64,000 bases of DNA from Desulfomonilia bacterium (GTDB lineage: Bacteria > Desulfobacterota > Desulfomonilia > UBA1062): contig JBEKDT010000015.1 of NCBI GenBank assembly GCA_050014195.1, positions 64,953 to 128,952 of the forward strand, given 5' to 3'. Numbering within the stretch: position 1 is the first letter of the stretch; each line of letters starts with the position of its first letter. Shown here in pieces: positions 2,802 to 21,702 of this stretch. Made by a program: the position numbers and the translations under genes. Under the pieces are notes generated by a model, which was not told the DNA's origin, did no database searches, and was given only the letters and a program-made list of their open reading frames with translations.

Positions 2802-3490
2802 TCATGATGGACCTGACCTACACTATTCAAAGATCAGCCAAGAGGCGCAAGCTGACCATCACGGTGGAACGCGACCGCAGCGTGGTGGTACATGCACCGG
2901 TTGGTATATCTGACGAGAAGATCCAGCAGGTGGTGGAGTCAAAACATCAATGGATCTACGAAAAGACCGGCCATTCTCAGAAATACCGGGTTCTGCCCCA
3001 TCCTCCCGGCAAGGAACTGGTCAGCGGTGAATCGACGCTCTATCTGGGGAGACAATACCGCATCGAGCTTGTAAAAAAAGGGTTGGATAGGGTTAAGTTC
3101 GTCCAGCGATTCTTCATTCCTGCAGCACAGGGAGAAAGACATCATGAGTTCTTGCGGGAATGGTATATCAACAGGGCCAAAGAAAAGATCATCCCACGGG
3201 TGAAGGTTCACGCCAGGGAACTCGGCGTTGATGTCGCCAGGGTAAAGATCGTTAATAACCGTTACCGCTGGGGTTCATGCACCCTGAATGACAATGTAAA
3301 TCTTAACTGGCGCTTGATCAAGGCACCCATGTTTGTCATCGACTATGTCATCATCCACGAACTCGCTCACCTTATAGAGCCGAACCACACGCCCCGGTTC
3401 TGGAATATCGTCCGCGCACAAGCCCCGACTATGGATAAGGCCAAGGCCTGGTTGAAGGAGCATGGGCAAGTGCTGGAACAATCGATATGA
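2798..3490 (+). CDS. M48/YgjP-like (DUF45) zinc metallopeptidase, common downstream partner of type I RM
   Basis: RWGSC, IDYVIIHELAHL and NHTPRFW motifs; GTGA overlap with hsdR stop. Confidence 0.85.
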   Translation: MIMMDLTYTIQRSAKRRKLTITVERDRSVVVHAPVGISDEKIQQVVESKHQWIYEKTGHSQKYRVLPHPPGKELVSGESTLYLGRQYRIELVKKGLDRVKFVQRFFIPAAQGERHHEFLREWYINRAKEKIIPRVKVHARELGVDVARVKIVNNRYRWGSCTLNDNVNLNWRLIKAPMFVIDYVIIHELAHLIEPNHTPRFWNIVRAQAPTMDKAKAWLKEHGQVLEQSI

Positions 3491-6613: not shown

Positions 6614-6881
6614 GATCTAATCCTTTCCCGGTAGTATGCTTGATTATAGCTTTATCTAAATTTCACCAGATATGTATTAATAACTTCGGATCAGGGAAAA
6701 ACCAGTCAGACCAAGAAAAAATGAGACGGATTTATCGTATCATCGCTGTCCTCAAGCACGCCGGTGGGAATTTCACAGCAGCTCATCATGGAGGAGGTCT
6801 TGTCAAAGGGCCGGAAGGGTTCCATGCCTGCGCCCGGGTAATCGCGCCTGGTTGTGTGGTTTACCTTGAATCAGCTGGTTT

Positions 6882-7052
6882 TTAGTTATTGCCGCACCGC
6901 GCCTGCATGGCAGCGATGTCTTCAGGGGCAAGCCCTTTGCAATCGGAATTAATCCTGTAATACATGATGGAACCCGGGTTTTTGCTGTGCTCGAGACCCT
7001 GGGCATGGCCGAACTCATGGGCCAGCGTACGCACAAGCATGTTGTGGCCGCT
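6882..7052 (-). pseudogene. 3' (catalytic) part of a matrixin/M10 metzincin metalloprotease gene, separated from its 5' part by the integrated element
   Basis: Manual translation: SGHNMLVRTLAHEFGHAQGLEHSKNPGSIMYY...RCGNN*; HExxHxxGxxH plus SIM Met-turn. Not in the ORF track. Confidence 0.9.
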
Positions 7053-7088
7053 TAAATGTTAAATCTTCTTATATACTCCCTTTTATAG
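7051..7088. repeat. Left attachment junction (core CT + element arm TAAATGTTAAATCTTCTT)
   Basis: Arm 7053-7070 matches the reverse complement of 20637-20654 at 15/18 positions; a tcccttt block recurs further in. Confidence 0.85.
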
Positions 7089-7246
7089 TCACTGGCAAAA
7101 TCTCTGCATCCCATAGATCATCAATATCGTAATAGTATCATAAACTTGGAACCCACTTTGACAAATTGATGTAAAATATATTTTAAGCTTTGGTGTAATG
7201 AAATTTATTTTATAATGAAGATAAAAAATATTTTGGAGGAACATCA

Positions 7247-7480
7247 ATGAATACCAAAGCCATACATCTATCTCACATAAATGTGAATTCCTGGCAGCGT
7301 TTCAAATCGTGCGCAGCTATAAAAAATATGGCTATTAACGATCTAGCGAACGTGATGATTGAGGAATTCGTGGATGATTTCGAGGAAAAACTCTTTCGAG
7401 AAGCCTATCACAAGAAGCTTGCCGACCCCACTACCGATCTCAGTAAACCTATAACAGTCAAACTCACGAGGACGAAGTAA
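7247..7480 (+). CDS. Putative ribbon-helix-helix DNA-binding protein
   Basis: GGAGGA RBS; short beta-like KAIHLSHI followed by amphipathic helices WQRFKSCAAIKNMAINDLANVMIEEFV. Confidence 0.55.
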   Translation: MNTKAIHLSHINVNSWQRFKSCAAIKNMAINDLANVMIEEFVDDFEEKLFREAYHKKLADPTTDLSKPITVKLTRTK

Positions 7481-7481
7481 T

Positions 7482-7700
7482 ATGAAAAACATCAGCGAGT
7501 GTGAGAGTTTCGAGGAATGGGCAATGTCGTTCAGTGATGATGAATTCAAGGAATTCGTCGCTGACAAATTTGGTGAACTTTCGATGGATCTGCGGAATAG
7601 AGATTTTAACATTGATCTCGTCTTACCAATCGTCGAATCAATAAAACAGGCTGTTTTTATACGTTATCAGTCGAAAGATCCGACAATCACAAATCATTAA
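7482..7700 (+). CDS. Small acidic hypothetical protein
   Basis: Starts 1 nt after the previous stop. Confidence 0.55.
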   Translation: MKNISECESFEEWAMSFSDDEFKEFVADKFGELSMDLRNRDFNIDLVLPIVESIKQAVFIRYQSKDPTITNH

Positions 7701-7924
7701 AAACACAATGAACATCCCAGGCCTGTATAAACCCCTATGTTTGTCAAATAAACATCACCTGGGACATCTCAGGAAGGAAAGCACTCATTGTAGAAAGGAA
7801 CCGCATTCTTGCGGATTCTATAGAACAGGTGGGATAGGGTCGCTCCCGACAAGAACGGTAAACTCCTTGGACCGTTCTTCCCACTTTTTATCATTCCATG
7901 GAGAACATGCACCGAGGAGGCATA

Positions 7925-8506
7925 ATGGAACGGGTTTCACGACGAATCTATCATAATGACCCTAAATTCAAGCCCAAGACTATCAAAGGTAAGACCAGAT
8001 GGCAGCATGACAATAGCAAATGGCCCCTCAATTTCGGGTGGATGGAGAAGGACAAAAGTATCTGGCGCAGACTCAATAATCCCAAGGATCGGAGTTTCCA
8101 TCACATGATTACAATCCTACAACACTTATGGGAGAAAAGGCTGGATCTGTTCGAGAGTAAATTTATTGCTGAACGTATAAACGCTGGTTTGTACAATACG
8201 CATAAATACGATGATGAGGGAAAGGAACGGAGATGGCCCTTTGTGATGTGTGCTCCACTTGATTATGATTATTTAGAAGCCCGAGACCTGGATCAAAGAA
8301 AGATCAGCTATTGTCTCAATGCACTCGTGAAGTGTGGCTTCTTACGAAGTTTCCGTCGGATAGGTCGCAATGGTCCAGTGAACTATGCAATCGGCTATTA
8401 CATAGTGACATCACACGCTCCTTATGGCCGTGCATATCCTTTTTTGAAGAGTAACCCAGCGTGTCAAAAAGCACTGATTAATTTCAAATTCAGGGAGAAG
8501 ATGTAG
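7925..8506 (+). CDS. Putative winged-helix replication initiator
   Basis: GAGGAGG RBS before ATG 7925; C-terminal QRKISYCLNALVKCGFLRSFRRIG..NYAIG resembles wHTH; iteron-like repeats follow immediately. Confidence 0.45.
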   Translation: MERVSRRIYHNDPKFKPKTIKGKTRWQHDNSKWPLNFGWMEKDKSIWRRLNNPKDRSFHHMITILQHLWEKRLDLFESKFIAERINAGLYNTHKYDDEGKERRWPFVMCAPLDYDYLEARDLDQRKISYCLNALVKCGFLRSFRRIGRNGPVNYAIGYYIVTSHAPYGRAYPFLKSNPACQKALINFKFREKM

Positions 8507-8517
8507 TGATTTTGAAA

Positions 8518-8578
8518 TGTAAAAAGATCTACCCATGGTTTGTAAAAAGATCTAGCCATGGGGCATGGATAGATCTTT
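8518..8578. repeat. Iteron-like repeats (candidate origin or packaging site)
   Basis: TGTAAAAAGATCTA(C/G)CCATGG at 8518-8538 and 8541-8561; inverted partial copy CATGGATAGATCTTT at 8564-8578; AT-rich tract follows. Confidence 0.7.
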
Positions 8579-9299
8579 ATCATATTTGATGGTTGGTTGA
8601 TTAATGTTGAATAACAATATGTTACACGATAAATTGAAAAAATCAATTGTGGCACATATTATACCTATTTTTAGGTATCCCTTATATAGTACCAATAGGT
8701 TCTTCTTCACTTCGTTCAGAAGAACATTGAGCAAACTTCGTTTGCTCTATCTCCCTCTTCTCTTTTTCAATGGAAGGAATGGAAAGACTATCCCATTCAG
8801 ATTGAAAGAGTTTGTTTTTCCCCATTAGGGGAATTTTAGTCGGGAGCCTAAGTTTTGGAGGCTCCATATGAAATTGAAGGTTTCAAAGGTTGCCAGAGTG
8901 TTTCTCAGTATCCATTTGGCAAGTGACCTATTCGGGTCCAGTGCCAGGGGATTTCCCATCTACCAAGAAGCACATGATTCATTGAAGATCAATCCAAGTA
9001 CCCTCGCCACTGTAAGATGGGTGGATGATCGGGAGCTACTTACATCACTCAAATATTGGAGGCGTGATGGGTATGTGTATGGGTTGTTGCTGAACCGATT
9101 GGTTACGGGAGACCTCCCATGTGCTGGGTATGAAGGCAGTCGGGAGCCATATGGTGATTTTTGAGGATTAATCCGGGCTTACCAAGTCTAAAGTCTTAAG
9201 TTATACTTTAGACTTTGGCACAAGAAGGCATAAAAAACGAGGAATAAACTAATCATTTGAAATGTAATAAATAAATACAACGGGTTATGAGGTAATTGA

Positions 9300-11111
9300 A
9301 TGACACTTACACGAACCAGATTCCCAATCAAAGAGGATAAAGCACCAGACATCGACCCTACCATTGACCCTGAAACTGACATCGATCAGGAACATAAAAC
9401 CAACATACCCACTACCAAACAGAGAGGGTTCCCTAAAGGATCTCCAAGGCCTCCGAGGATAGCCGAGCGCTGGCAGGAGAACACGGAAGAAGCCTTCTAT
9501 GCCTGGTTGGAAGATGTCAAGCCCATGATCCTTACACGATCAGGTAGGTATGAGGTCTTCCGACCCACACCTGAGCAGAAGACAATCATCAAGGCCGTCT
9601 TCACACAAGAAAATGGAAAGCTTAAGCACTCCATGATCCTGTCCATTCAGCCTCGTAGACACGGCAAGAGTACAGTCTTTGCAATCATAGCACTCTTCTT
9701 TTTCTGTTCCAGGAAGAACTACACCATTTCTTTGCTAGGTAATAACGATACGCACACCGATAGGACAATGCTCAGGAAGCTCAAGTCCATCATCCAGCAT
9801 ACCGGAGGCTTAAGAATTCGGATAGACCCCGACAGGGACATCCTTCATGACTGTATACGCCAGGAAACCTGGGGAAACCAAATAATCAAGCAAGGCGTTT
9901 CAAGTGCATCCGCATTCGGAGAGCGTATAAATCTGCTATGGGTATCGGACCTCCATGCAGCCCCTGACATCTCGATATTCAACGCAGTCCAGGCCTCACT
10001 CTTAGACTCGGAAGATTCCCTGATCCTCATAGACAGCAATGCAGATTCCATAGGCGGTCCCGTTCATGGCTTGGAAGAAGAAGCCATGTCCGACCCTTCA
10101 ATATTTTGCAGACACCTGGAATACAAGGATTTTGAAGAGTTTACAGAGAAAGCCCCTGCATGGATTGACCGATCCAGAGCCAAGCGCATACAAAGAACAG
10201 CCTTGGAAGCAGACTACCAGCGCGACATCCTCGGCAAACGCTCATCAGTAGCCAATGCTCTCTTCCCCGAAATCCTTATCAGGGCAGCTATGGACAGCTA
10301 TAAAATCCCCGTTCTTGACATCAAAGACCTCGCCCATGGCAGACCCTACAAGGTCGGTGCTGGTTTAGACCGAGCAAAGCTGTTGTCTCCGATAATGGGA
10401 GGAGATCACAGCGTCCTGACGACCGTTGCCAAGGTCGCCCAGACATCAGGTGAGCCCGAATATTTCATCCTCGACATGCACGATTTTACCTTGAACCTCA
10501 GCAAGGCAATAAAGGCCAGGATCATAGAGAATCACAAGAGATACACCCTCACCAATGTTGTCTTAGAATCATTCGAGACAGTAGACCTTCTCCCATATCT
10601 GGCAGAAATGCAAATTTCCCATGAGTCAATCCATGCAACAGACGTCGCACAGAACACGATATTCCCTGAGTTCTACCGCATAGTGAAGGACGGTAGGCTC
10701 CATATCCCGGCAAACTGCACCCAGCTTGCCGATGAAATGCGCTCATTCATTTATACCGCAAAGAAACATGGACAATACAGCTTTGGGCATTCATCAAGCC
10801 AGTTCCATGACGATGCCGTGTACGCCACTGCATGGGCGATCTTCTCTCTCAGGAATGAGATTCTTAGCATGTATCAGCTTGATCTACTCGATTGTCAGAA
10901 TCAATCCTCGCTCAAACGGGCTCTATGTTTCTTATTTGGTGGTTCAAAAGTCATGCACTGCTCTGAAGGCTGTGCTGCATTCCATTCAGTCCAGGACATG
11001 CACCAAGACTTCCTGGCATTCAATCAGTTGGACAGCGAGCTTAACTTGGTTGAGTTTTTCAAGGCATACGTCCAGACCAAAGACACCATCAAACAATATC
11101 AGGTGCTGTAA
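9300..11111 (+). CDS. terL: Terminase large subunit
   Basis: PTPEQ adenine-binding motif, QPRRHGKST Walker A, GLDRA and FHDDAVYA nuclease acidic motifs; upstream of portal and capsid genes. Confidence 0.85.
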   Translation: MTLTRTRFPIKEDKAPDIDPTIDPETDIDQEHKTNIPTTKQRGFPKGSPRPPRIAERWQENTEEAFYAWLEDVKPMILTRSGRYEVFRPTPEQKTIIKAVFTQENGKLKHSMILSIQPRRHGKSTVFAIIALFFFCSRKNYTISLLGNNDTHTDRTMLRKLKSIIQHTGGLRIRIDPDRDILHDCIRQETWGNQIIKQGVSSASAFGERINLLWVSDLHAAPDISIFNAVQASLLDSEDSLILIDSNADSIGGPVHGLEEEAMSDPSIFCRHLEYKDFEEFTEKAPAWIDRSRAKRIQRTALEADYQRDILGKRSSVANALFPEILIRAAMDSYKIPVLDIKDLAHGRPYKVGAGLDRAKLLSPIMGGDHSVLTTVAKVAQTSGEPEYFILDMHDFTLNLSKAIKARIIENHKRYTLTNVVLESFETVDLLPYLAEMQISHESIHATDVAQNTIFPEFYRIVKDGRLHIPANCTQLADEMRSFIYTAKKHGQYSFGHSSSQFHDDAVYATAWAIFSLRNEILSMYQLDLLDCQNQSSLKRALCFLFGGSKVMHCSEGCAAFHSVQDMHQDFLAFNQLDSELNLVEFFKAYVQTKDTIKQYQVL

Positions 11112-11317
11112 TGTACGAGAAGACAGAAGATTTATGGCTCCCATTAATAGGAGATGGTCAGATAGAATTTAGATGTGCAGCCTGCCGGAGATATTTTGGG
11201 AGAGGTTTATTCCCACCAGGATCTTTCCTGCTTCATAAATGTGGGAAGTGTGACCGGATAAACAGGCTTGGAGCCCATGGCGCTTCATTGGCATCACTCG
11301 GGGTAATAAAAAAATAA
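11111..11317 (+). CDS. Mu Com-like zinc-finger protein
   Basis: EFRCAACRRYFGRG...HKCGKCDRIN; TAATG overlap with terL. Confidence 0.65.
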   Translation: MYEKTEDLWLPLIGDGQIEFRCAACRRYFGRGLFPPGSFLLHKCGKCDRINRLGAHGASLASLGVIKK

Positions 11318-11332
11318 GGAAGGTAACAAGTA

Positions 11333-11533
11333 ATGGCAACAGGAACAGTAAAATGGTTCAACAGAGAAAAAGGGTATGGGTTTATCACAGTAGACGGTGG
11401 AAGTGATGTCTTTGTGCATTGGAAAAACATCTTAGGAGATGGGTTCAAGATGCTGGTTGAAGGCGATTCCGTAAGATTCGACATCGAGGAAGGCCCGAAG
11501 GGAGATCAGGCAGTTAACGTGAGGGAAGAATAA
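11333..11533 (+). CDS. Cold-shock protein (CspA family)
   Basis: [16 protein letters not shown] (RNP1), DVFVHW (RNP2), [10 protein letters not shown]. Confidence 0.95.
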
Positions 11534-12051
11534 TGATCAAGCAAAATGGCAAATGGACGAGGATTCCACCCGAGCTTGAGCGGGCTTTTTACGCCCACCA
11601 TGAGGCCGGTCATGTGGTGATGCATTACCTCAAAAAAGTGAGATTTGCTTATGTGACTATCAATGGAACCATGTCTGAACGTCCAGATGTTAAATCTTTC
11701 GTCTGCGTTAATCCAATATCCTTTGAGAAAAGGAAAAAGGTACTGGAAAGGGAATTTCTTCTTGATATGGCCGGGACAATTGCCGAAAAAATTTATCTCA
11801 AGTCCAAAGGCTATGAGGTGTGTCCCGGGTATACAAAAAGTGACTTGCGGTTAATCATGAACAAGGCTGAAAAGTATTTTGGGATTACAGAACCAGATGT
11901 AATTGACAAAAAACTAAAAGAACTTGAGCCCGAGTGCAAAAATCTCATTGAACAGAACTGTAAAGCTATTACAGCCATTGTGGAAGCCCTACTGAAAGAA
12001 GAGACGATAGGATACAAAAAGGCCAGAGAGATCATCAAAAGAATAAAATAA
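11533..12051 (+). CDS. Stand-alone M41 (FtsH-type) zinc peptidase domain protein
   Basis: AHHEAGH, MAGTIAEKI, SDL and AIVEALLKEETI match the FtsH protease domain; no AAA or TM part. Confidence 0.7.
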   Translation: MIKQNGKWTRIPPELERAFYAHHEAGHVVMHYLKKVRFAYVTINGTMSERPDVKSFVCVNPISFEKRKKVLEREFLLDMAGTIAEKIYLKSKGYEVCPGYTKSDLRLIMNKAEKYFGITEPDVIDKKLKELEPECKNLIEQNCKAITAIVEALLKEETIGYKKAREIIKRIK

Positions 12052-12077
12052 GTTTTCGTCTTGTTATAGAAAAAAAC

Positions 12078-12176
12078 TATAATAACATATATCACGAAAA
12101 GCCCCCTTTTCATGCATAGAGCCCCATGGAGGCCAGCCGACGGCCAAACCATTGGGGCTCTTTTGCTTTTAGGAGG
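12078..12176 (+). promoter_or_regulatory. -10 box plus structured 5' leader of the portal gene
   Basis: TATAAT 12078-12083; stem AGAGCCCCA (12118-12126)/TGGGGCTCT (12153-12161) followed by T-runs; AGGAGG at 12171-12176. Confidence 0.5.
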
Positions 12177-12183
12177 TTAGTGA

Positions 12184-13530
12184 ATGTTTTGGAACAGCGT
12201 TGTTGACGATGTAGCATTTCGAACATGGGGATTCAGTGCGACTGACCCCGTCTTGATGCGGAAGCAGGAACACCTCCGCAGGATTGAGTATTACCACGAC
12301 TTACAGTTAGATTTCCTGCGGATGCAGCTTACCCGACATTTCGCAGATGCAAGCAAGATCACGCCGATGTTTATCAATGTGACCCGAAAAGTCATAAACA
12401 ACATTGCCAGGGTTTACATTTATCCGGTCACGAGGCAGATCGTCAAAGGCTCAACAACCGACACCGAACTTTTCCAAGCAATTGCCCTCACATCGTCTCT
12501 TGGAAGAAAACTCAAGCTGGCAAGTCGATATTGCAAGCTCCTTAAAACCCTTCTGCTCAGGCCAATATGGCGTGATGGTCACATGGACTTGGACCTGATA
12601 ACGGGTGACAAAACCGATGTCACTTATGGTGATGTTCCGGAGCAGTTACTATCGGTCAAAATAACGATCTATCCTGACTCAGGAAAGCTCGAAGACCTAA
12701 CATATAGCCTTTGGACTGCCCAAGAGTTCCAGACGCTTGACTACAGAAATAAAGTGATTGCAAGCCAGCCAAATCCTTACGGCGTTTTGCCATTCGTCCC
12801 GATCTGGGATGGTGTTCCAGTTCGAGATTTTTGGATCGATGGCGGTGACGATCTGATCACAGCCCAGGATGCCGTTAACGAGAGGTTGACCGATTTATGC
12901 TATGTTTTACGCCTTCAAGGATACGGTCAGCCTTATACAATCGGTGTACCACAAAGCACCGACTTTTATTTGGGACCAGGTGCAGTAACCCAACTGCCAC
13001 AGGGATGTAGCATGGGCTTTGCCTCAACTAACGCCCCAATCAGCGCGATCATCGAAGCAATAAAATTTCTCATAGGTCAGACAGCTGTCTCGTATGGCCT
13101 GTCCGCGCATATTCTAATTGACGAACCGGAACGATCTTCCGGAATTAGCAAGATAATTTCTAGCCAGGAGCTAGATGAAGCCCGGCAGGACGAGGTCGAG
13201 CTTTTCATGGATTACGAGCATAACTTATTCAATATGTTCAAGGTTCTATGGAACCATCACAATCCTGGTAAACAGTTTTCCAAGAATGCAGAATTAAAAG
13301 TATCATTTGAAGATCCTAAACCAGAAGTTGATCCTCTGGTCCAAGCGAACGCATGGACTGCATTGATGGGCATGGGCGTCATATCGCCTGTGGACATCGT
13401 CATGGCTCGCAATCCTGACATAACGAGTAGACAAGATGCCCTCGCATATTTGCTGACTGTAGAATCCGAGATGAGAACCCTCAATGAGGGATATCCCATA
13501 ACCCCAAATCCAGGAAGGACGGTACCCTAA
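12184..13530 (+). CDS. Phage portal protein (SPP1 gp6-like)
   Basis: 448 aa; INVTRKVINNIA, QPNPYGVLPFVP, SSGIS, LKVSFEDPKP; position between terL and scaffold. Confidence 0.85.
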   Translation: MFWNSVVDDVAFRTWGFSATDPVLMRKQEHLRRIEYYHDLQLDFLRMQLTRHFADASKITPMFINVTRKVINNIARVYIYPVTRQIVKGSTTDTELFQAIALTSSLGRKLKLASRYCKLLKTLLLRPIWRDGHMDLDLITGDKTDVTYGDVPEQLLSVKITIYPDSGKLEDLTYSLWTAQEFQTLDYRNKVIASQPNPYGVLPFVPIWDGVPVRDFWIDGGDDLITAQDAVNERLTDLCYVLRLQGYGQPYTIGVPQSTDFYLGPGAVTQLPQGCSMGFASTNAPISAIIEAIKFLIGQTAVSYGLSAHILIDEPERSSGISKIISSQELDEARQDEVELFMDYEHNLFNMFKVLWNHHNPGKQFSKNAELKVSFEDPKPEVDPLVQANAWTALMGMGVISPVDIVMARNPDITSRQDALAYLLTVESEMRTLNEGYPITPNPGRTVP

Positions 13531-13925
13531 TGGAAAAAGAAGCAATCGTCAACGCAGACGGAAAAAGCGATGAAACAAAGGAAAAAGCCCAGGCCCAGGG
13601 CACGGACAATGCCACCGAAAAAGGCAGCAAGATGATTCCCAAGGAACGATTCGATCAGGTCAACCAGCAGAAAAAAGAGGCTCTTGAAGCCCTGCAATCC
13701 ATTGTTGATGAACTCATCGAGGACATCCCGGAAGAGTTTAAAGACCTCGTCCCTGACCTATCACCAGCAGTTAAAATAATGTGGATCAGGAACGCGCAGA
13801 AAAAGGGAATCTTTGGGAAGACATCTCCTGATGGGCTAGACACAAAGAGATCCGGGAATACGGCCCCCAGAAATCTTGAAGGTCTTAGTACACACGATTT
13901 AAGGAAACTTGGTTACAAAAACTAA
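13530..13925 (+). CDS. Capsid scaffolding protein
   Basis: Charged N-terminus, MIPKERFDQVN motif seen in phage scaffolds, directly upstream of MCP. Confidence 0.75.
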   Translation: MEKEAIVNADGKSDETKEKAQAQGTDNATEKGSKMIPKERFDQVNQQKKEALEALQSIVDELIEDIPEEFKDLVPDLSPAVKIMWIRNAQKKGIFGKTSPDGLDTKRSGNTAPRNLEGLSTHDLRKLGYKN

Positions 13926-14004
13926 AAAATAAATCCATTGTCTCAACATAGTTAGAGGCCATTGAAGAGCCCTTGTTTCTGACGTGGAAACAGGAGGAAA
14001 ATCA

Positions 14005-14925
14005 ATGGCTTTAACATTGTTAGATCAAGCTAAACTTTGCGTTGATCCGCTTCAAAAAGGCATTATCGAAGAGTACCCGCGAACTTCTGAGGTGCTTCAA
14101 CGACTACCCTTTATGTCAGTTTCAAGTGATACTTACAGATACAACAGGGAAGAAATTTTGCCAGGTGTCGGTTTTCGAGGCGTGAACGAGAGCTATAATG
14201 AAAGCACTGGCATACTCAATCCCCAGATCGAGACACTCATGATCTCAGGTGGGTTTAGCGATGTTGACCGTGCTCTAATTAAAACACAGGGAAATGTAAA
14301 CGATCTTCGGGCAATTTATGACGGACTAAAGGCCAAGGCATTAAGCCTGTTCTGGACTAAAGAATTCTTTAAGGGTGACACTACAGTCAACCCACGAGGA
14401 TTCGATGGTCTTGAAAAACGTCTGACTGGTCCGCAGCTCCTCGATATGGGCTCAAGTGCAGGTGGTGACACCTTGACCCTTGCCATGCTCGACGAGCTGA
14501 TCGACTGCTGCCCATGGGGTGTTGATTGTTTGTTTATGAACAGGACCATGAGGAGAAAGGTCAATGCCTTGATTCGTGCTTCCGGTGCAGCAATCGAGAC
14601 GGTCTCTGATGCCTTCGGTCAACAGATACCTTCATATGCATCCATACCAATCGGGATAATTTGGATCGATGAAAAAGGTAATGAAATCCTTGATTTCAAT
14701 GAACCTGCGCCTGGTGATGGTGCTACTGTTACCACCTCAATTTATGCAGTTAAATTTGGTGCAGGGCAGTACGTTTCAGGATTGCAGGTCAGTCCTATAG
14801 AAGTGCTCGATCTCGGCTTGTACGCTGGCGGTATCAAGTTCAGAACGCTGATCGAGTGGATCAGTGGCATGGCTGTCTTTAACTCAAGGGCAGCAGCGCG
14901 TCTACGTGGAATTAAAAACGCATAA
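14005..14925 (+). CDS. Major capsid protein (HK97 fold, no delta domain)
   Basis: AGGAGG RBS 13992-13997; MALTLLDQAKL..LPF..YRYNREEILPGVGFRGVNE..GFDGL..AAARLRGI resembles widespread phage MCPs. Confidence 0.88.
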   Translation: MALTLLDQAKLCVDPLQKGIIEEYPRTSEVLQRLPFMSVSSDTYRYNREEILPGVGFRGVNESYNESTGILNPQIETLMISGGFSDVDRALIKTQGNVNDLRAIYDGLKAKALSLFWTKEFFKGDTTVNPRGFDGLEKRLTGPQLLDMGSSAGGDTLTLAMLDELIDCCPWGVDCLFMNRTMRRKVNALIRASGAAIETVSDAFGQQIPSYASIPIGIIWIDEKGNEILDFNEPAPGDGATVTTSIYAVKFGAGQYVSGLQVSPIEVLDLGLYAGGIKFRTLIEWISGMAVFNSRAAARLRGIKNA

Positions 14926-15047
14926 TAGTGTCTCACTCCCAGGAGTGAGTGTTTTACCCGACCGGTCTGCCACTCAGACCTGTGTCATATTCTTAAATGG
15001 GGAGCAAGGATCGGCCTTGCTCCCCAGCCTCCAAGAAAGGATGAAGC

Positions 15048-15239
15048 ATGGAACGTAAAAGAGGTAGGCCCAAGAAAAGTATAAAACTGATGGAAAATAG
15101 GGTTGGGTTCTTCATTGAGATTTACAAGGATCTTCATCAGCAACTTAAGACTGAGTCCGACAGGCAAGGTGTGCCCATGTGCAAGTTTGTAGAAATAGCA
15201 ATCAAAGAATTACTTAAGTCATGTACAATGACATCTTAA
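15048..15239 (+). CDS. Putative ribbon-helix-helix protein with N-terminal AT-hook
   Basis: RKRGRPKK, then VGFFIEIYKDLHQQLKTESDRQGVPMCKFVEIAI. Confidence 0.6.
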   Translation: MERKRGRPKKSIKLMENRVGFFIEIYKDLHQQLKTESDRQGVPMCKFVEIAIKELLKSCTMTS

Positions 15240-16228
15240 AATTCCAGCATCGTGTAGATCAACGAAGCAATGCTCTTGCCTCGGATATGATCCGAGAGCT
15301 TGATGCTGCAAGGGTTGAAATCCTTGGAAAACTGGCTGATCTGCAAGATCGTTACATTCGAGGCGACTACAACACCGAGACATTTCAACGTAAACAGGCT
15401 TTCTTACTGCATCAGAGGAACGAGGTTGAAGATACCCTTGATAGTGTTTTCAGCAATATTGGAGATCAACTCCAATCAGCCTCAGAAGACGTTATCGCAG
15501 CGACAACCGTACACACGATCAGTACAATGAACAATAGCACTGGCCTTGACATCCAGTTCTTCCACTTGGACCCTGAACTTGTCCAGGCATGGTTCCAGAC
15601 CGGCCTTATCGAAGGCTCGACCCTCACAGACTGGCTCAATAAGCTAAAACAGTCCACAGCCGACAGAATAATTAAGGCACAAAGACAATCCCTCATTCAG
15701 GGCGAGAGTGTGGGGGGAATGGTCAAACGATTACGCCAGGAGGGCGTTGAGGGAAGTTATCGAGACCTCACTGGCCTTGCCCGAACCAGTATGCTTTCGG
15801 CTGCAAACTATGCTCGTGAACAAACCGTTACTCAGGGCTTCGGGGATGTGCTCACGGGCTGGCAATATTGCGCCACGCTAGATTCGAGGACGTGTTTGGT
15901 GTGTGGGGATTTGGATGGAACCACATATGGCCCTACAGATCAAAAAGAAGATTTACCCTTACATTGGTGCTGCCGATGTTGCTACATTCCACTAGTAGGT
16001 GGTGAGGGTGCTAACACTGATGATCGTCCAGCCGTTACAGATGAAAGAGTTGAGAGGTTTGACGGCACATACAACGAGTGGATGCAATCGCAATTAGAAT
16101 CCGACCCCGGCTTCGTCAAGGATGTTTTAGGCCCTGGAAGGTTTGATTTATTCAAAGATGGGAAAATAAGCCTTTCAAATATGGTTACAAATGGCGAAAT
16201 AACAACCCTTGCAGACCTCAAAGGATAG
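15221..16228 (+). CDS. Minor head morphogenesis protein (SPP1 gp7/Mu gpF family)
   Basis: LARTS, WQYCATLDSRTCLVCGDLDG, PLHWCCRC, TYNEWM, VLGPGRFDLF. Confidence 0.9.
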   Translation: MYNDILKFQHRVDQRSNALASDMIRELDAARVEILGKLADLQDRYIRGDYNTETFQRKQAFLLHQRNEVEDTLDSVFSNIGDQLQSASEDVIAATTVHTISTMNNSTGLDIQFFHLDPELVQAWFQTGLIEGSTLTDWLNKLKQSTADRIIKAQRQSLIQGESVGGMVKRLRQEGVEGSYRDLTGLARTSMLSAANYAREQTVTQGFGDVLTGWQYCATLDSRTCLVCGDLDGTTYGPTDQKEDLPLHWCCRCCYIPLVGGEGANTDDRPAVTDERVERFDGTYNEWMQSQLESDPGFVKDVLGPGRFDLFKDGKISLSNMVTNGEITTLADLKG

Positions 16229-16254
16229 GGGTTTTCAGAGGTCGGGGCTAACCT

Positions 16255-16482
16255 TTATCCTTCTATAGCCACTAAAACCGCTCCATTAACATATGAAGCA
16301 TAGCGATGATTTAAGTAAGTTACAATTTCATTATCCCATTTTAACTCATCCCCTTGATTATCTCTTGGCTTCCTATCTTTTATAGTCACCTCCATTGAAC
16401 TATATACTCCAAACTGAACGCTAAAACCTTTGGCCTTCCCGTCTCTCATCGTTCCACTAATCATTATAAACTTATATTCCAT
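16255..16482 (-). CDS. Hypothetical protein
   Basis: AAGGAG RBS before MEYKFIM; overlaps the upstream ORF. Confidence 0.5.
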   Translation of the reverse strand: MEYKFIMISGTMRDGKAKGFSVQFGVYSSMEVTIKDRKPRDNQGDELKWDNEIVTYLNHRYASYVNGAVLVAIEG

Positions 16483-16762
16483 TGCTTGACTCTCCTTTTT
16501 CTGGCTCCCCATATAGGGATACCCAGACTGCTCTTTTCATTTCTTTGGTTATGTATTTACCAACTATCGTTCTACAATCTTCAGCAAGTGCAATAAGCTC
16601 CTTTTTTGCTTTCTTTATGCGTTTGTCGGTCCAATTAGGGGTAACATCTAGAAGGTCACACCATTCAATATGACTGAGCATGTCATCCAAAACACATAAC
16701 TGGGTTAACAATTCGCCAATGTCTATACTGCCTGCAACCTTACCATTTTTTAACTTACCCAT
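16472..16762 (-). CDS. Hypothetical protein
   Basis: GAGGTG RBS, 96 aa. Confidence 0.55.
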   Translation of the reverse strand: MGKLKNGKVAGSIDIGELLTQLCVLDDMLSHIEWCDLLDVTPNWTDKRIKKAKKELIALAEDCRTIVGKYITKEMKRAVWVSLYGEPEKGESSNGI

Positions 16763-16995
16763 TTTTCACCTCTCTCGTTCATCATGCTTACATTATATCA
16801 TATTTTCAGATGAAACACGGTTTTCGGATAGGGTTTCAACAGGTCAGGGCAAAACCTTATCTCCTATATCTTTCTTTAATAATACAATCAATTTATATCT
16901 TTCACGAAATGTGAAAGATAGTCTTGTTTTTTAAATAAATAAAAATTATTATGAATATATCTTGTTATATCAAAAGCCTATGAAAGGAGAGAATT

Positions 16996-17349
16996 ATGGT
17001 TGCAAAAAAGGGACAAGTTAAGAAGTCAGGCAATGGCGATACCATTGAAAAGATCAATCGCAAACCAGTCCAGAAAAAGGCGGCTATCAAGGACGATCAA
17101 ACAGCAGCCCCCAAAGAAATCAAAACAGATGTTTTCGGTAACAGAGTCAATACCCAGTCCAGCCTGATCAATGAACTCCTCCTGAAAGGCACGAAGAAGG
17201 ACGTCATTGTCAAGGCTATCATGGACAAGTTCAACAGTCCTGAGAAGACGGCTACCGGCAAACTTCGGGGGCACATCAAACACCTCAAGAAAGAAGGACA
17301 TTCTGTAACCGAGAAGGATGACACCTATACCATAAAGATAAAAGGCTAG
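16996..17349 (+). CDS. Lysine-rich putative DNA-binding protein (C-terminal wHTH-like)
   Basis: AAGGAG RBS; very basic; SLINELLLKG..KLRGHIKHLKKEGHSVTEKDDTYTI. Confidence 0.6.
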   Translation: MVAKKGQVKKSGNGDTIEKINRKPVQKKAAIKDDQTAAPKEIKTDVFGNRVNTQSSLINELLLKGTKKDVIVKAIMDKFNSPEKTATGKLRGHIKHLKKEGHSVTEKDDTYTIKIKG

Positions 17350-17357
17350 GGGGCGAT

Positions 17358-17552
17358 ATGGATCTGATTGAACGTCAGGCAAAAGCGGATCAAGTCAAAA
17401 ACAGGGTGTTCAGTATTCTTACTGTGGCCTTAGCTCAGGTCAGGAATACAGTTGAGGAGTCCGGTCTTGAGATGAGAGACTGTGGCATCAGTGTTGAGCG
17501 ATACCAGGCCGGAGATCATTCAATATTCGTCGATCTCAGGATGAAGATATAA
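17358..17552 (+). CDS. Hypothetical protein
   Basis: AGGGGG RBS; followed by a terminator. Confidence 0.55.
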   Translation: MDLIERQAKADQVKNRVFSILTVALAQVRNTVEESGLEMRDCGISVERYQAGDHSIFVDLRMKI

Positions 17553-17585
17553 AAATATAACCCGCACCTACGAAAGACCTCCCTT

Positions 17586-17614
17586 GGCCCCGGTGCAATG
17601 CCGGGGCCTTTTTT
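17586..17614 (+). terminator. Rho-independent terminator
   Basis: GGCCCCGG-loop-CCGGGGCC followed by TTTTTT. Confidence 0.85.
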
Positions 17615-17666
17615 ATGCCCCTCGATGAATTTGGGGAGTCCTTTTAAGGCCCCGCCGCAACTGTGT

Positions 17667-17897
17667 CTAATCCTTCAATGGAATCCAGGCCCAACGGTGA
17701 AAGCCTTCTCTAAGCTTATATTTATAACAATCACCATTCGAATAAGTTGATGTCAGGATTCCTTGATCAGCATTGTAATCCCAGGTAAAAATATCACCGT
17801 ATGTTCCTCGGACCTGACACTTAAAACTTTTCTTTAAATCTATACTCAAAAAATCCAACTCGTCCTCGTCCCAAATTTCCTTATCTCCCAGATCCAT
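17667..17897 (-). CDS. Hypothetical protein
   Basis: AGGAG RBS before MDLGDKEIW. Confidence 0.5.
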   Translation of the reverse strand: MDLGDKEIWDEDELDFLSIDLKKSFKCQVRGTYGDIFTWDYNADQGILTSTYSNGDCYKYKLREGFHRWAWIPLKD

Positions 17898-18074
17898 TGT
17901 GATTCTCCTATAAATTTTTATTCGACGAATAAACAATCGTACAGACTATCGTAGCACACTTTTTTCAAAACCTTGTTCAGTCTGGAAAAATAGTTTTTAT
18001 GAGTAATTATCTTGTTTTATTTATATATTTATTTTATGATATTCTTAAAATAAATAAGGCAGGAGGGCCAAGTT

Positions 18075-18317
18075 ATGGCGGAAAAATTGAGGGCTTTTAC
18101 CCTTTACATCGAAGATATAAAGCTCCGTAAGATGAAGGCGATAGCAGCCTACAAGGATAAAAAGACAAGGGAAATTGTCAACGAGATGTTCGATCTCTAC
18201 CTGGCAAAGTTCGCTGAAACTGAGCAAGGCAAGCAGCTTATGGCATCCTTTGAAGAAGAACACAAAGGGGAAATCAAACTTACTCGCCTGAAGAAACCGG
18301 AATCACAAAAACCATGA
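18075..18317 (+). CDS. Putative ribbon-helix-helix protein upstream of the recombinases
   Basis: AGGAGG RBS; RAFTLYIEDIKLRKMKAIAAYKDKKTREIVNEMFDLYL. Confidence 0.6.
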   Translation: MAEKLRAFTLYIEDIKLRKMKAIAAYKDKKTREIVNEMFDLYLAKFAETEQGKQLMASFEEEHKGEIKLTRLKKPESQKP

Positions 18318-18334
18318 TATAATAAGGGGGAAAT

Positions 18335-19042
18335 ATGGCTGATGTGTACATGGTCACTAGAACATCGACAAATCACCAGGACCTTTCCATTGAGGCCCAG
18401 GATGCAGCCCTGAGAAAATGGGCTATGAATCATGGGCACATTGTGAAGGGTATTTCCACAGAGGACGGGGTGAGTGGTGGACGGGACATTAAGAAGCGTC
18501 ATATTATGAAGATCCTCAACAAGATGGGCAAAGGTGACATCCTGGCTACGTATTCATGGAGTAGGCTGACGAGAAGCCTTTCAGACCTGATGGAAATTGC
18601 CAAGATCCTGGAAAAGAAGGGGTCACATTTGGTGAGTCTCGTAGAGCAGATTGATACGAGCACCCCACAGGGCAGACTCTTCTATCACATCATGGGGTCT
18701 ATGCATCAGTTTGAAAGAGAGCTGATTGCTCAGCGAGTTAGGTTTGGACTGGACCACAAACGGTCAAAATCTGAGAAGTTGGGTGGCATGATTCCATTCG
18801 GCTATGATGTGAAGGTGGTTCCCGGTATGAATCGCAAGGGTGAGCCGACCAAGATCAAGAAGCTGGTCCCAAACGAGAAAGAGCATTTTATCATAGAGAA
18901 GATACTTACATTGCGACGGGAGTCATGCACTTTGAAGAATATTGCCAATACACTGAATGCCGAGGGCATCCCGACCAAGAATGGCAGTGTATGGCTTTCG
19001 GGCCAGATAAATAGGATAGTTCGACGGGAGGCAAGGGCATGA
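18335..19042 (+). CDS. Serine recombinase (resolvase catalytic domain + short recombinase DNA-binding domain)
   Basis: TRTST catalytic Ser, EDGVSG, SRLTRS, IDTSTPQGRL, FERELIAQR, PFGY, IANTLNAEG. Confidence 0.92.
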   Translation: MADVYMVTRTSTNHQDLSIEAQDAALRKWAMNHGHIVKGISTEDGVSGGRDIKKRHIMKILNKMGKGDILATYSWSRLTRSLSDLMEIAKILEKKGSHLVSLVEQIDTSTPQGRLFYHIMGSMHQFERELIAQRVRFGLDHKRSKSEKLGGMIPFGYDVKVVPGMNRKGEPTKIKKLVPNEKEHFIIEKILTLRRESCTLKNIANTLNAEGIPTKNGSVWLSGQINRIVRREARA

Positions 19043-20658
19043 CTACGGATGGATTGAAACCACCTCTACGTTTTGGGGTGCTGTGCCGTGTTAGCACCGA
19101 ACCTCAGGAAAAGCGTGGGGAATCCCTGAACAATCAAAAGAAGCAGGTCGAGTCTGCCGTGAAATATCTTGGTGGGATAATTACCATGCGATATGAGGGG
19201 CAAGAGCATAGTACACCAGGATCTGAACGAGAGATGCTTGACAGGGCTCTCGTAGATTCTGGCAAAGGTCTCTTCGATGCATTTATGGTCCCTGATCTCA
19301 CAAGATGGACCAGGGACAATGAAAAGAATAAGCAGAGTATCAGAATTTTTAGGATGAACAAGATACGCTTTTTTGTAGGAACGATGGAGTTCAATTTAAA
19401 CAAGTCTCATGATCGAATGATGATTGGAATGACGACAGAGGTCGGAGAAGGCACCGCTGGCTATATGGCAGAGAGGAGCAAGGAATGTCGTCATGATCTA
19501 TTTAGTAAAGGAGTGCCATGTGTCGGTCAGAAACCCTATGGACGAAAGTATGACAAGAAGACAGGCACATGGAGTATCGACGAAGAAAAGAAGGAAATGA
19601 TTAAGATAGCAGTCAAGAAGTTTCTATCAAAGATAGGCCGTGAGAAAATAGGCCGTGAGAAAATTGCAGAGGAAATGGGAATTTCTCCAAGCACATTGTA
19701 TATCATCTTCAAAAAATTCCTTGGTGATACATGGACCACTAAAATGGGGACAATGAAAATCCCTCCCCTGATTGAGGATCAGAAAATCATTAAAGCAGTC
19801 CATGAGAGACTTGAAAACAACAAGACCATCAACCATGATCCACGTGGGAAACATGCATATCTGTTATCCAGCATCATATTTTGCGCTGATTGCGGACTCA
19901 CCCTGAATGGCGTTCCCGATCAGATGAACTATGGAAAGACTGAGGCCCAATATAAATATAGGTACAGACACCCAAAGAACAAAAGCATCAAGCGTTTTTG
20001 CCCAAATTATAAAGCATGGGACATCAGGGCAGAGGACATAGAAGAAGCTGTGATAATCCAAATGCTATATCTTTTTGGACATAGAGAAGCATTAGAGAAG
20101 TCCATATTAAGAACTGTCCCCAATAATGAAAAATTGCAAGAACTGTCTGCCACCAAGGCAAGGTATAATAAGGAGTTCGATAATATTGAAAAAGAAATAC
20201 AGACCCTCATTGAAAAAACCGTCAAAGGAATATTTACGGATGAAGAAGCAAGACCCACTATGGAAAAATATCGTGAACGCAAGAGATTCCTCAAACTAGA
20301 GATGGATAATCTCGATACTCAGATTGGACAATCACCAACCAAAAAAGAGCTTAGTGCACTTGCCAAAAGAGTTCACCAACAGGCTTGGAAGGCACTTTAT
20401 CAAAATCCTGCAAAAATGACATGGACTCAGAAACGGGAACTTTTGTTAAAGGTATTTTTAGGGAAGCATGTCTCTGGCGATAAACCAGGTATCTATGTCA
20501 AAAAAGTTGATGATGTCGTGCATTATTCTATCAAAGGACTAATCAATCAGGAGATTGAGGGGTGTCTTCCAATGAGCGATTGGGAGAGGGAAGAATTGCT
20601 AGATAATCCTATAAAAGCAAAAGGGAATAATATAACAAGTAAATTTAACAATTACTGA
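19039..20658 (+). CDS. Large serine recombinase (integrase); stop codon formed at the right att junction
   Basis: CRVST catalytic Ser, DLTRWTR, PYG, YLLSSIIFCADCG Zn ribbon, long coiled coil; ATGA overlap with the upstream recombinase. Confidence 0.92.
   Translation: MTTDGLKPPLRFGVLCRVSTEPQEKRGESLNNQKKQVESAVKYLGGIITMRYEGQEHSTPGSEREMLDRALVDSGKGLFDAFMVPDLTRWTRDNEKNKQSIRIFRMNKIRFFVGTMEFNLNKSHDRMMIGMTTEVGEGTAGYMAERSKECRHDLFSKGVPCVGQKPYGRKYDKKTGTWSIDEEKKEMIKIAVKKFLSKIGREKIGREKIAEEMGISPSTLYIIFKKFLGDTWTTKMGTMKIPPLIEDQKIIKAVHERLENNKTINHDPRGKHAYLLSSIIFCADCGLTLNGVPDQMNYGKTEAQYKYRYRHPKNKSIKRFCPNYKAWDIRAEDIEEAVIIQMLYLFGHREALEKSILRTVPNNEKLQELSATKARYNKEFDNIEKEIQTLIEKTVKGIFTDEEARPTMEKYRERKRFLKLEMDNLDTQIGQSPTKKELSALAKRVHQQAWKALYQNPAKMTWTQKRELLLKVFLGKHVSGDKPGIYVKKVDDVVHYSIKGLINQEIEGCLPMSDWEREELLDNPIKAKGNNITSKFNNY
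20619..20656. repeat. Right attachment junction (arm AAGTAAATTTAACAATTA + core CT)
   Basis: Inverted counterpart of 7053-7070. Confidence 0.85.
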
Positions 20659-21412
20659 ATTGAAAAATGGTTATGCTTTCCCTGAACATGGTCCTCTCAT
20701 ACAGACCGGAAGCGAACTTCCCGGTCAGTTCGTTGCATGTGTTTTTGTAGCTCATCACCTGCGAATTGTGGTTTGATGCTATGGAACCGATGTCTGCAAC
20801 AATACCGTTCAGGTCGTCCACCGTCTTCTGCAGGTCCGCTTGTTGGGCCTGGAGGCCTTCCAACTCGGCATCGAGGGACTGCTTCTGCCCGGAAAGACTT
20901 TGAAAGGTTCCCCTGGAGACGGTGTCATCCTTATTCGCTGCATCAAGCTCAGCCCTGTAGGCATTCAGGTGCCTCATGTATGCATCATATTGCGCTGAAT
21001 AGGCGGCATTCTTCCGCTCCACCTCGGCTTTAAGATCATTGTACAGGGACATGAGCTCATCATACGATGCCTTTGCATCGTCTATGCCTCTGCTGATGTT
21101 TTTCAGATTGTCCGTTACTGCCTGCCGGTTGTCATACACCAGGTCTATCTCGATGGAGCCGGCCGGGTCTTCCTGGAAGATCTTGTGCCCGATGGCCTTC
21201 TCCCACATGGCGACCGCCTCATGAACGGCATCCGTAACCTCCTGCCTGCTCAATCCGAAGCGCTCATCGATGGAGTTGATGCGGTAGGTCATGATCGTGT
21301 TGAATGCCTCTGATCTGCCCTGGAAGATGCAGACAAAGAGGATACAGATGATGATTTGTGGCAGATACCTGATGGGGCTTAAGGGGTGGCTCGTGTATGC
21401 ATTTTTCATCAT
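20645..21412 (-). pseudogene. 5' part of the matrixin-family metalloprotease (signal/TM segment, N-terminal metzincin strands, coiled coil), truncated by the element
   Basis: TYRINSIDERFGLSRQEV..AVAMWEKAIG..IEIDLVYDNRQ, coiled coil, ends ITIFQFS|NC* at the att core; joins in frame to 6882-7050. Confidence 0.88.
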
Positions 21413-21462
21413 GGTGGTACAGATATTTTTCGGGTGATATTCTAAAAAGCTTAACAGGCTAC

Positions 21463-21702
21463 TTGTTCTCACCACGAAGGACTTAGCGCAGCATAGCCGC
21501 AACCAAAATGAGCTTGGGATTTGAGCAGACATAGAAGTCCTTCACCACGAAGAGCACTTTAGGACACGAAGAAAGGAAACCTTTTGAAATAGTGGAACGG
21601 TTCAAAGAACCCACGATTGTCTGTTATGCATTTCTTAGATCATCTTCGTGCTCTTCGTGTCCTTCGTGGTGAAATTTCCCTGTGTGTGCTCTTCAACGAT
21701 CC
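21463..21702. repeat. Palindromic MITE-like repeat, copy A (CACCACGAAG...CTTCGTGGTG arms)
   Basis: Shares both flanks with 31697-31861; carries an extra nested segment at about 21483-21540. Confidence 0.75.

Follow-up and report, generated by a model that had tools for sequence, protein, structure and literature searches.

Large serine integrases recombine the phage attachment site (attP) with the bacterial attachment site (attB) unaided, and act on attL and attR, the hybrid sites of an integrated element, only together with a directionality factor. They are prized for this simple control of direction, the structural basis of which is still being worked out. In PhiC31, Bxb1 and A118/LI, attP lies to our knowledge outside the open reading frame (ORF) of the integrase gene (int). 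In the SSV1-type (fusellovirus) systems attP is located inside the integrase gene, and the enzyme is a tyrosine recombinase, as is the integrase of Mx8. Here we describe a phage-like element in a stretch of 64,000 nucleotides (nt) of a Desulfomonilia bacterium (GCA_050014195.1, contig JBEKDT010000015.1, positions 64,953 to 128,952, forward strand; hereafter the window), whose large serine integrase gene contains the crossover site of attP. As read from the DNA, the integrase of this element loses a conserved C-terminal element upon integration and regains it upon excision.

Several described systems come close to this arrangement. An extreme C-terminal element of SPbeta SprA reportedly takes part in directionality control (Abe et al. 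2021). Residue F532 near the C-terminus of SPbeta Int is called ‘important for directionality control’ (PMC11722253). In Mx8, attP lies inside int, integration creates a new 3' end, and the prophage enzyme is active but altered (PMC6070905). Similarly, attP of BPs lies inside the repressor gene, where a host base creates the stop codon (PMC9262239).

The integrase gene and the crossover site

The features at the two ends of the element are given in coordinates of the window:

7053..20654, plus strand: integrated phage-like element of 13.6 kb, inserted in a matrixin-type protease gene
19039..20658, plus strand: large serine integrase gene, prophage form of 539 amino acids (aa), ending ...SKFNNY, stop codon TGA at 20656-20658
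20657..21532, minus strand: N-terminal part (N-part) of the host gene, matrixin-like protease, from homologue alignment
6882..7052, minus strand (6882..7050 excluding the core): C-terminal part (C-part) of the host gene, with a HEFGH zinc motif and a match to Pfam Peptidase_M10 (5.8e-10)
7051..7052, plus strand: crossover dinucleotide CT at attL, from junction comparison
20655..20656, plus strand: crossover dinucleotide CT at attR, C being position 3 of the last codon TAC and T the first base of TGA
20635..20654, plus strand: P arm of attP, forming the left half of attR in the integrated state, within the last 7 codons of int
7053..7072, plus strand: P' arm of attP, forming the right half of attL in the integrated state
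7052..7132, plus strand: 26-aa C-terminal extension and TAA, in frame with int in the excised circle only
7070..7096, plus strand: motif codons Y-I-L-P-F-I-V-T-G, 19-45 nt past the core and outside the dyad arm

The boundaries of the element were deduced from the interrupted host gene. In the prophage the reading frame of the N-part covers 20645..21532, as it continues into the element up to a TAA at 20645-20647. A search with the N-part against 1.84 billion representative proteins gave 1,403 matches at E <= 1e-3, the best of which (P0026; 310 aa, E 5.5e-70, 51% identity) left approximately 57 C-terminal residues unpaired. When both halves were aligned with seven full-length homologues (approximately 300-313 aa), they abutted exactly (0 gap, 0 overlap). 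The left junction reads ...GGCCG-CT-TAAATG and the right junction ...AATTA-CT-GAATTG. The two junctions have different bases on either side of CT, which leaves no other dinucleotide as a possible crossover; thus the T of the integrase TGA is the second core base and its GA is host DNA. These junction sequences agree with an earlier note on this DNA, which had placed the attP core inside the last int codon and had composed the stop codon of the core T and a host GA.

Around the CT core the P and P' arms are complementary at 15 of 18 and at 16 of 20 positions, compared with merely 10/20 for the host arms. Among all 63,957 window positions, only the core at 7051 provides the P arm with a partner scoring at least 15/20, and in a random-pair control (n=400,000) a score of 16/20 was seen 0 times window-wide and once inside the element. 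The dyad is far above chance and falls at the junction to which the host gene, as independent evidence, had pointed; the near-palindromic attP around a 2-bp core, which had been proposed before, is borne out by it. Like the attP of other serine integrases the rebuilt site is a short quasi-palindrome with a 2-bp crossover, and no long direct repeats are present at the element ends. Its P arm carries TAAAT at -15..-11 from the core, a motif in common with relatives such as L027 (see below). Taking these data together, it seems extremely improbable that the boundaries are wrong or the match arose by chance, with the element inserted elsewhere: the host halves join in frame, their alignment with homologues leaves neither gap nor overlap, the partner of the dyad is unique in the 64-kb window, and the G+C content along the window drops inside the element below that of the flanks.

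The product of 19039..20658 is a large serine recombinase on the basis of its catalytic, zinc-ribbon and coiled-coil regions. The 539-aa protein matches Pfam Resolvase (PF00239; 1.9e-11, residues 16-152) and Zn_ribbon_recom (PF13408; 1.2e-6) as well as the PHROGs integrase family phrog_95 (4.1e-41), while PF07508 was not matched in the Pfam scan. The putative nucleophile, S19 in R-V-S-T-E, is invariant across 77 aligned sequences. In the AlphaFold2 model (mean predicted local distance difference test score, pLDDT, of 87.8) long paired helices at residues 363-430 correspond to the inserted coiled coil of large serine recombinases. The fold ends in helices 435-473, the strands 484-490, 493-499 and 505-510, and a helix at 514-521; residues 526-531 and 533-539, which include the tail encoded by the P arm, have a pLDDT below 50, as expected of a linker. 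According to a Foldseek search of the PDB, the full-length matches are the integrases of SPbeta, Bxb1 and PhiC31 (E 5e-17 to 7e-10).

All circle forms considered here are in-silico joins of the element ends. Translation of 7052-7129 in the int frame gives 26 residues, followed by TAA, and lengthens the integrase from 539 aa in the prophage to 565 aa in the circle, exactly as the earlier note had stated. The extension contains the motif S-S-Y-x-L-P-F-x-V-x-G and ends in ...RSSIS. Past the junction it has no in-frame ATG, GTG or TTG, and in the prophage no reading frame of the same strand enters it. A promoter and terminator scan of 6800-7400 gave no signal exceeding that of shuffled sequences. 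In a phage collection, the integrase had only tblastn matches below 26% identity, and megablast with the whole element found no match. The attP site of this element thus lies inside the integrase ORF, the prophage and free forms of which have different C-termini.

Related integrases and the conserved extension

The integrase is rare, with 22 matches in the protein collection, the next best at 42% identity. This collection also holds one identical partial copy (P0004) with the same prophage-type end. Two of the listed relatives, P0012 and P0015, are encoded on contigs of approximately 13 kb. A scan of one genome per species revealed 71 loci, mostly from uncultured Desulfobacterota, Planctomycetota, Bacteroidota and others, whose best segments are 28-51% identical to the integrase. 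When the proteins of the element were cross-matched to these loci, the integrase was found in all 71 and the second recombinase of the element in 19; the other 21 proteins and both host-gene halves had no match in any of the 71. By these matches the relatives have the int-attP module in common, not the element.

In 39 of the 71 loci a partial UPF0047 gene (YjbQ-family; Pfam PF01894, 7e-37) abuts the 3' end of int. Int and the UPF0047 target are located on the same strand in 17 loci with the core AA (group G1), and on opposite strands in 22 loci with the core TT in the int sense (group G2). The int ORF spans the crossover dinucleotide in 38 of these 39 loci, the exception being L058. As in the window, the core occupies codon position 3 and the following position 1 in 20/22 G2 loci, and in 8/22 the stop codon is formed by the core T and two host bases, which is exactly the layout of the window. 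Since L018 is mismatched on both sides of AA, the core comprises 2 bp. In L017 and L054, the target is more distantly UPF0047-like and the cores, TA and TT, are less certain.

One UPF0047 site, located at the Asn codon of V-N-A-M-H, serves as the target in the 39 loci and is entered in either orientation. A core AA goes with an element co-directional with its target and the complementary core TT with the opposite direction, the arm motifs being similar, which provides a natural illustration of the dinucleotide setting the polarity of integration. The split target also explains the seemingly conserved integrase ends ...CHAHY..VYQ and ...KYALH, which are UPF0047 read out of frame or antisense; the end ...CHAHY..VYQ* of P0007, P0011, P0013, P0021 and P0023 and of L001, L010, L022 and others is an annotation artefact of integrated copies. 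Eight loci (L012, L013, L018, L023, L036, L041, L050 and L066) carry a complete UPF0047 copy of their own just upstream of int, and this element-borne copy appears to substitute for the disrupted host gene.

Both junctions are present in 12 UPF0047 loci, giving 13 rebuilt elements including the window. Their P and P' arms are complementary at 12-18 of 20 positions in 12/13 elements and at 8/20 in L018. Counted from the core codon, the tails of the integrated copies measure 1-21 aa and are unrelated, host-encoded sequences, compared with 17-79 aa in the circle. In 21 loci that lack a UPF0047 junction, the surroundings of the int stop were searched for an intact attP; no palindrome exceeded 12/18, and hence all 21 look integrated. 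A brute-force search for the distal arm in the loci without a UPF0047 junction (at least 16/20, identical dinucleotide) recovered L046 by its dyad alone (16/20, core AA, positions 689 / 11583), corresponding to a 10.9-kb element. The insertion lies at the third codon of a gene for a tandem universal stress protein (Usp), and joining the flanks restores the Usp start (Pfam Usp, 2.4e-35). The rebuilt elements thus total 14, on three unrelated target genes (matrixin-type protease, UPF0047 and Usp).

Two further candidates from the distal-arm search were rejected: the arm of L035, which has no motif, as probable chance, and that of L037 since its match turned out to be a long and perfect inverted duplication. 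This duplication (approximately 2937-3206 / 11761-12024) contains UPF0047-like C-parts and flanks the integrase region of L037. Apart from L037 we left out L038 and L067, where int runs off the locus, L060, where int is broken, and L061, where the locus ends within the proximal junction; L058 was omitted from the alignments A4 and A5 due to an internal stop.

The circle tails of the rebuilt elements align on aromatic-x-[LIV]-x-G, frequently with LP or IP before it. Forms of this motif in the relatives are L-P-F-S-L, I-P-F-K-L-R-G, L-P-F-E-L-T-G and Y-R-I-T-G, and in L046 I-I-P-F-Q-I-K-G. The columns of alignment A3 hold an aromatic residue (F/Y) in 12/13 elements, an aliphatic one (L/I/V) in 13/13 and Gly in 11/13. 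Read in the int frame, the first 30 codons past the core contain the strict motif [FY].[LIV].G in 9/13 elements, compared with 0/13 for each other forward frame; L046 has it too, which brings the count to 10/14. The int frame remains open for at least 15 codons in 13/13, whereas 20 of 26 reads in the other forward frames stop within 8 codons. In pairwise local comparison the int frame reaches a mean score of 17.5, compared with 13.0-16.1 in the five other frames and with 13.6 +/- 0.36 after shuffling, where 0/300 shuffles scored as high. By its reading frame and residues the extension is therefore conserved as protein across distant relatives that use three target genes. The earlier note had suggested that two isoforms could set stability or directionality, had proposed comparing the extension among homologues and had named its lack of conservation, along with identical behaviour of both isoforms, as speaking against this; a lack of conservation was not observed in the rebuilt relatives.

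The same data bear on the question whether the left element end carries a signal at the DNA level, i.e. an extended site for the integrase or an accessory factor, or a promoter element, with the in-frame peptide being coincidental. In 6/13 elements the distance from the core to the motif start is exactly 30 nt, and one reverse frame scores 16.1, both of which would fit such a signal. However, the start varies from 19 to 40 nt among the elements (with offsets of 19, 24, 34, 39, 39 and 40 nt) and yet always keeps the int frame, in the codon registers of both G1 and G2. Each of the four Gly codons occurs, conservation is lowest at the third codon position (identity by codon position 0.44/0.42/0.33), and the strict motif is missing from the other forward frames. 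Furthermore, the dyad symmetry, which averages 0.71 over nt 1-20 in the 13 elements, is at chance level beyond nt 21 and amounts to 0.26 over nt 30-44. As the symmetry is gone where the motif sits, the motif is not part of the symmetric attP arm and has no dyad partner on the P side. Taking this into account, we regard a purely DNA-level signal as very unlikely.

Possible roles of the extension

We slightly favour the view that integration is coupled to an isoform switch, with the 565-aa form as the native integrating enzyme and with a tail that acts on the integrative or directionality side. In this scheme the full-length 565-aa protein, available from the incoming or excised circle only, would perform attP x attB recombination. 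Integration would then physically strip the conserved C-terminal element from the enzyme and excision would bring it back. Since the full-length protein can be made from the circle alone, it is taken to be the integrating form; and because the truncated form is all that the prophage can make, it would have to be capable, together with a directionality factor, of recombining attL with attR. The tail itself would act specifically on the integrative or the directionality side, possibly by docking on the integrase and biasing it toward integration or away from factor-driven excision. Such a scheme would amount to a genetic toggle comparable to that of Mx8 IntP/IntX, and it recalls the C-terminal element of SPbeta SprA.

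The last conserved strand of the core fold shows the pattern of the extension motif (H-Y-S-I-K-G in the window, F-E-I-R-G in many relatives). The complex of the integrase with the 26-aa peptide was predicted with scores of 0.53, 0.56 and 0.53, compared with 0.01 for the best of 3 controls; the contact agreement of the runs was at least 62% and the pLDDT of the partner at least 51. This result falls into the class ‘weak support’ of the procedure, the mark of which was reached by 116/157 solved complexes and 2/215 mismatched pairs in a calibration without chains below 30 residues, while the prediction itself used alignments of our own; scores up to 0.60 were obtained for just 18/157 solved complexes and for both mismatches that passed. 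The natural end of P0015, ...SKPFREIFVASYI, resembles a circle-form tail.

Several points weigh against an isoform switch. The complex prediction reached no more than the class ‘weak support’ and gives no interface, and in the AlphaFold2 monomer of P0015 the tail (residues 536-550) is undocked, with a pLDDT below 50. The motif is absent or degenerate in 4/14 rebuilt elements (L004, L013, L049 and L052), its definition was made after the data had been seen, and one reverse frame scores 16.1 against 17.5 in the int frame. An uninterrupted circle-form ORF was not seen in any sequence, every extension having been joined in silico. Moreover, if the tail were needed for binding the directionality factor, as the C-terminus of SprA appears to be, the truncated form would be defective in excision, which would speak against the roles assigned above.

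Some of these observations would also suit a neutral by-product of compaction, in which int and attP travel as one module, the full-length protein is just the ordinary integrase and the truncated form is equally good or tolerated, without any switch. Disorder is predicted for the linker and for the tail that the P arm encodes, the tail of P0015 is undocked in the monomer model, and the length past the motif is highly variable (17-79 aa in all). The integrated tails are arbitrary host sequences of 1-21 aa, so that any tail seems to be tolerated. On the other hand, a protein-level motif that persists across approximately 30-40% identical integrases and three targets implies a role; every integration removes it, and the core codon register is kept in 20/22 G2 loci and in the window. 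We consider a neutral origin unlikely.

A further explanation is that the C-terminal motif determines stability, making the circle-form integrase short-lived, or stabilising it, and confining its availability to a brief period after entry or excision. The motif would then resemble the ssrA-like tags on the integrase and repressor of BPs. There is a precedent in the integration-dependent immunity systems (PMC9262239), and a tail that follows a disordered linker is typical of degrons. Yet the conserved residues are internal, with 3-60 unconserved residues after them, whereas tags of the ssrA type sit at the extreme C-terminus, and by eye no -LAA-like end is present. The docking prediction, at its class of weak support, points to an intramolecular contact instead. 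A stability tag thus seems improbable. Two specific motifs were dropped on inspection by eye: an ssrA-like tag for the reasons just given, and a sliding-clamp-binding motif, as the Gln occurs in L052 only.

An isoform switch might also extend to a DNA-encoded directionality toggle throughout the clade, in Desulfobacterota, Planctomycetota, Bacteroidota and further phyla, with the aromatic-x-aliphatic-x-Gly strand as its movable part. The strand would dock when attP is intact, locking the integrative mode or blocking the site of the directionality factor, and integration would leave an enzyme primed for factor-dependent excision. We regard this as rather unlikely at present; if it were true, recombination would rewrite the recombinase itself in each cycle.

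Should the clade indeed gain and lose a conserved C-terminal element by recombination, it would provide a natural isoform pair for studies of directionality. For genome mining the loci carry a warning, as the ORF of an integrated copy in this clade is not the native protein but lacks the conserved tail and often bears a host-encoded one. The integration-competent enzyme would be recoverable only by reading across the rebuilt attP.

Gene content and comparison with known systems

According to Pfam and PHROGs matches the element has, besides int, genes for a second serine recombinase, a large terminase, a probable portal, a Mu-F-like head morphogenesis protein and a major head protein (phrog_212, 2e-76). 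No tail, lysis or replication genes were recognised by these searches in the 13.6 kb, and no directionality factor was identified within them. The element resembles a capsid-forming satellite or a very small phage. Three further features are:

11333-11533, within the element: cold-shock protein
11533-12051, within the element: M41-like peptidase fragment
18335-19042, plus strand: second serine recombinase ORF, 235 aa, directly 5' of int and overlapping the int start at ATGA

The 235-aa protein matches Pfam Resolvase (8.5e-34) and the first half only of the Recombinase domain. Candidate roles for it are those of a small resolvase, a truncated integrase or a partner protein. Recombinases similar to it were detected upstream of int in some relatives, e.g. 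L023, L014 and L060.

With PhiC31, Bxb1 and A118/LI the integrase of the window shares the domain order and fold, and its element shares the short quasi-palindromic attP, the 2-bp crossover and an attB located in a gene. SPbeta Int is likewise a large serine integrase and provides the best structural match to the window protein (9y66/9dxh, E about 5e-17). In SprA, however, the C-terminal element is always present in the protein, whereas that of the window is gained with excision and lost with integration.

The BPs and Brujita systems resemble the window in the position of attP close to a gene's 3' end, in the loss of a C-terminal element upon integration and in the host base beside the core that makes the stop codon (PMC9262239, PMC6109161). 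In those phages, however, it is the repressor gene that is split, integration takes away an ssrA-like degradation tag, a tRNA gene serves as attB and the integrase belongs to the tyrosine recombinases. By eye, the extension of the window shows no ssrA-like tag of the -LAA type that integration would remove. In SSV1-type elements the integrase gene is split into two large parts, in contrast to the short tail trimmed in the window.

A further likeness is that to IntP/IntX of Mx8, where attP also lies within the integrase coding sequence and integration leaves a recombinant gene whose 3' end is new. The window enzyme differs in being a large serine recombinase with a 2-bp core and a short replaced tail, and whereas the altered activity is described for Mx8, it is presumed here, with indirect support from the conservation of the removed element and from the docking prediction of the class ‘weak support’. 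As a serine recombinase the window protein is not homologous to Mx8 Int, so that the resemblance is one of logic and not of ancestry. Full-text literature searches, in which most subscription journals were outside coverage, yielded no account of a serine integrase whose ORF contains attP or whose isoforms depend on integration. The alteration of a gene by integration, known from the systems above, is here a clade-wide trait of large serine integrases.

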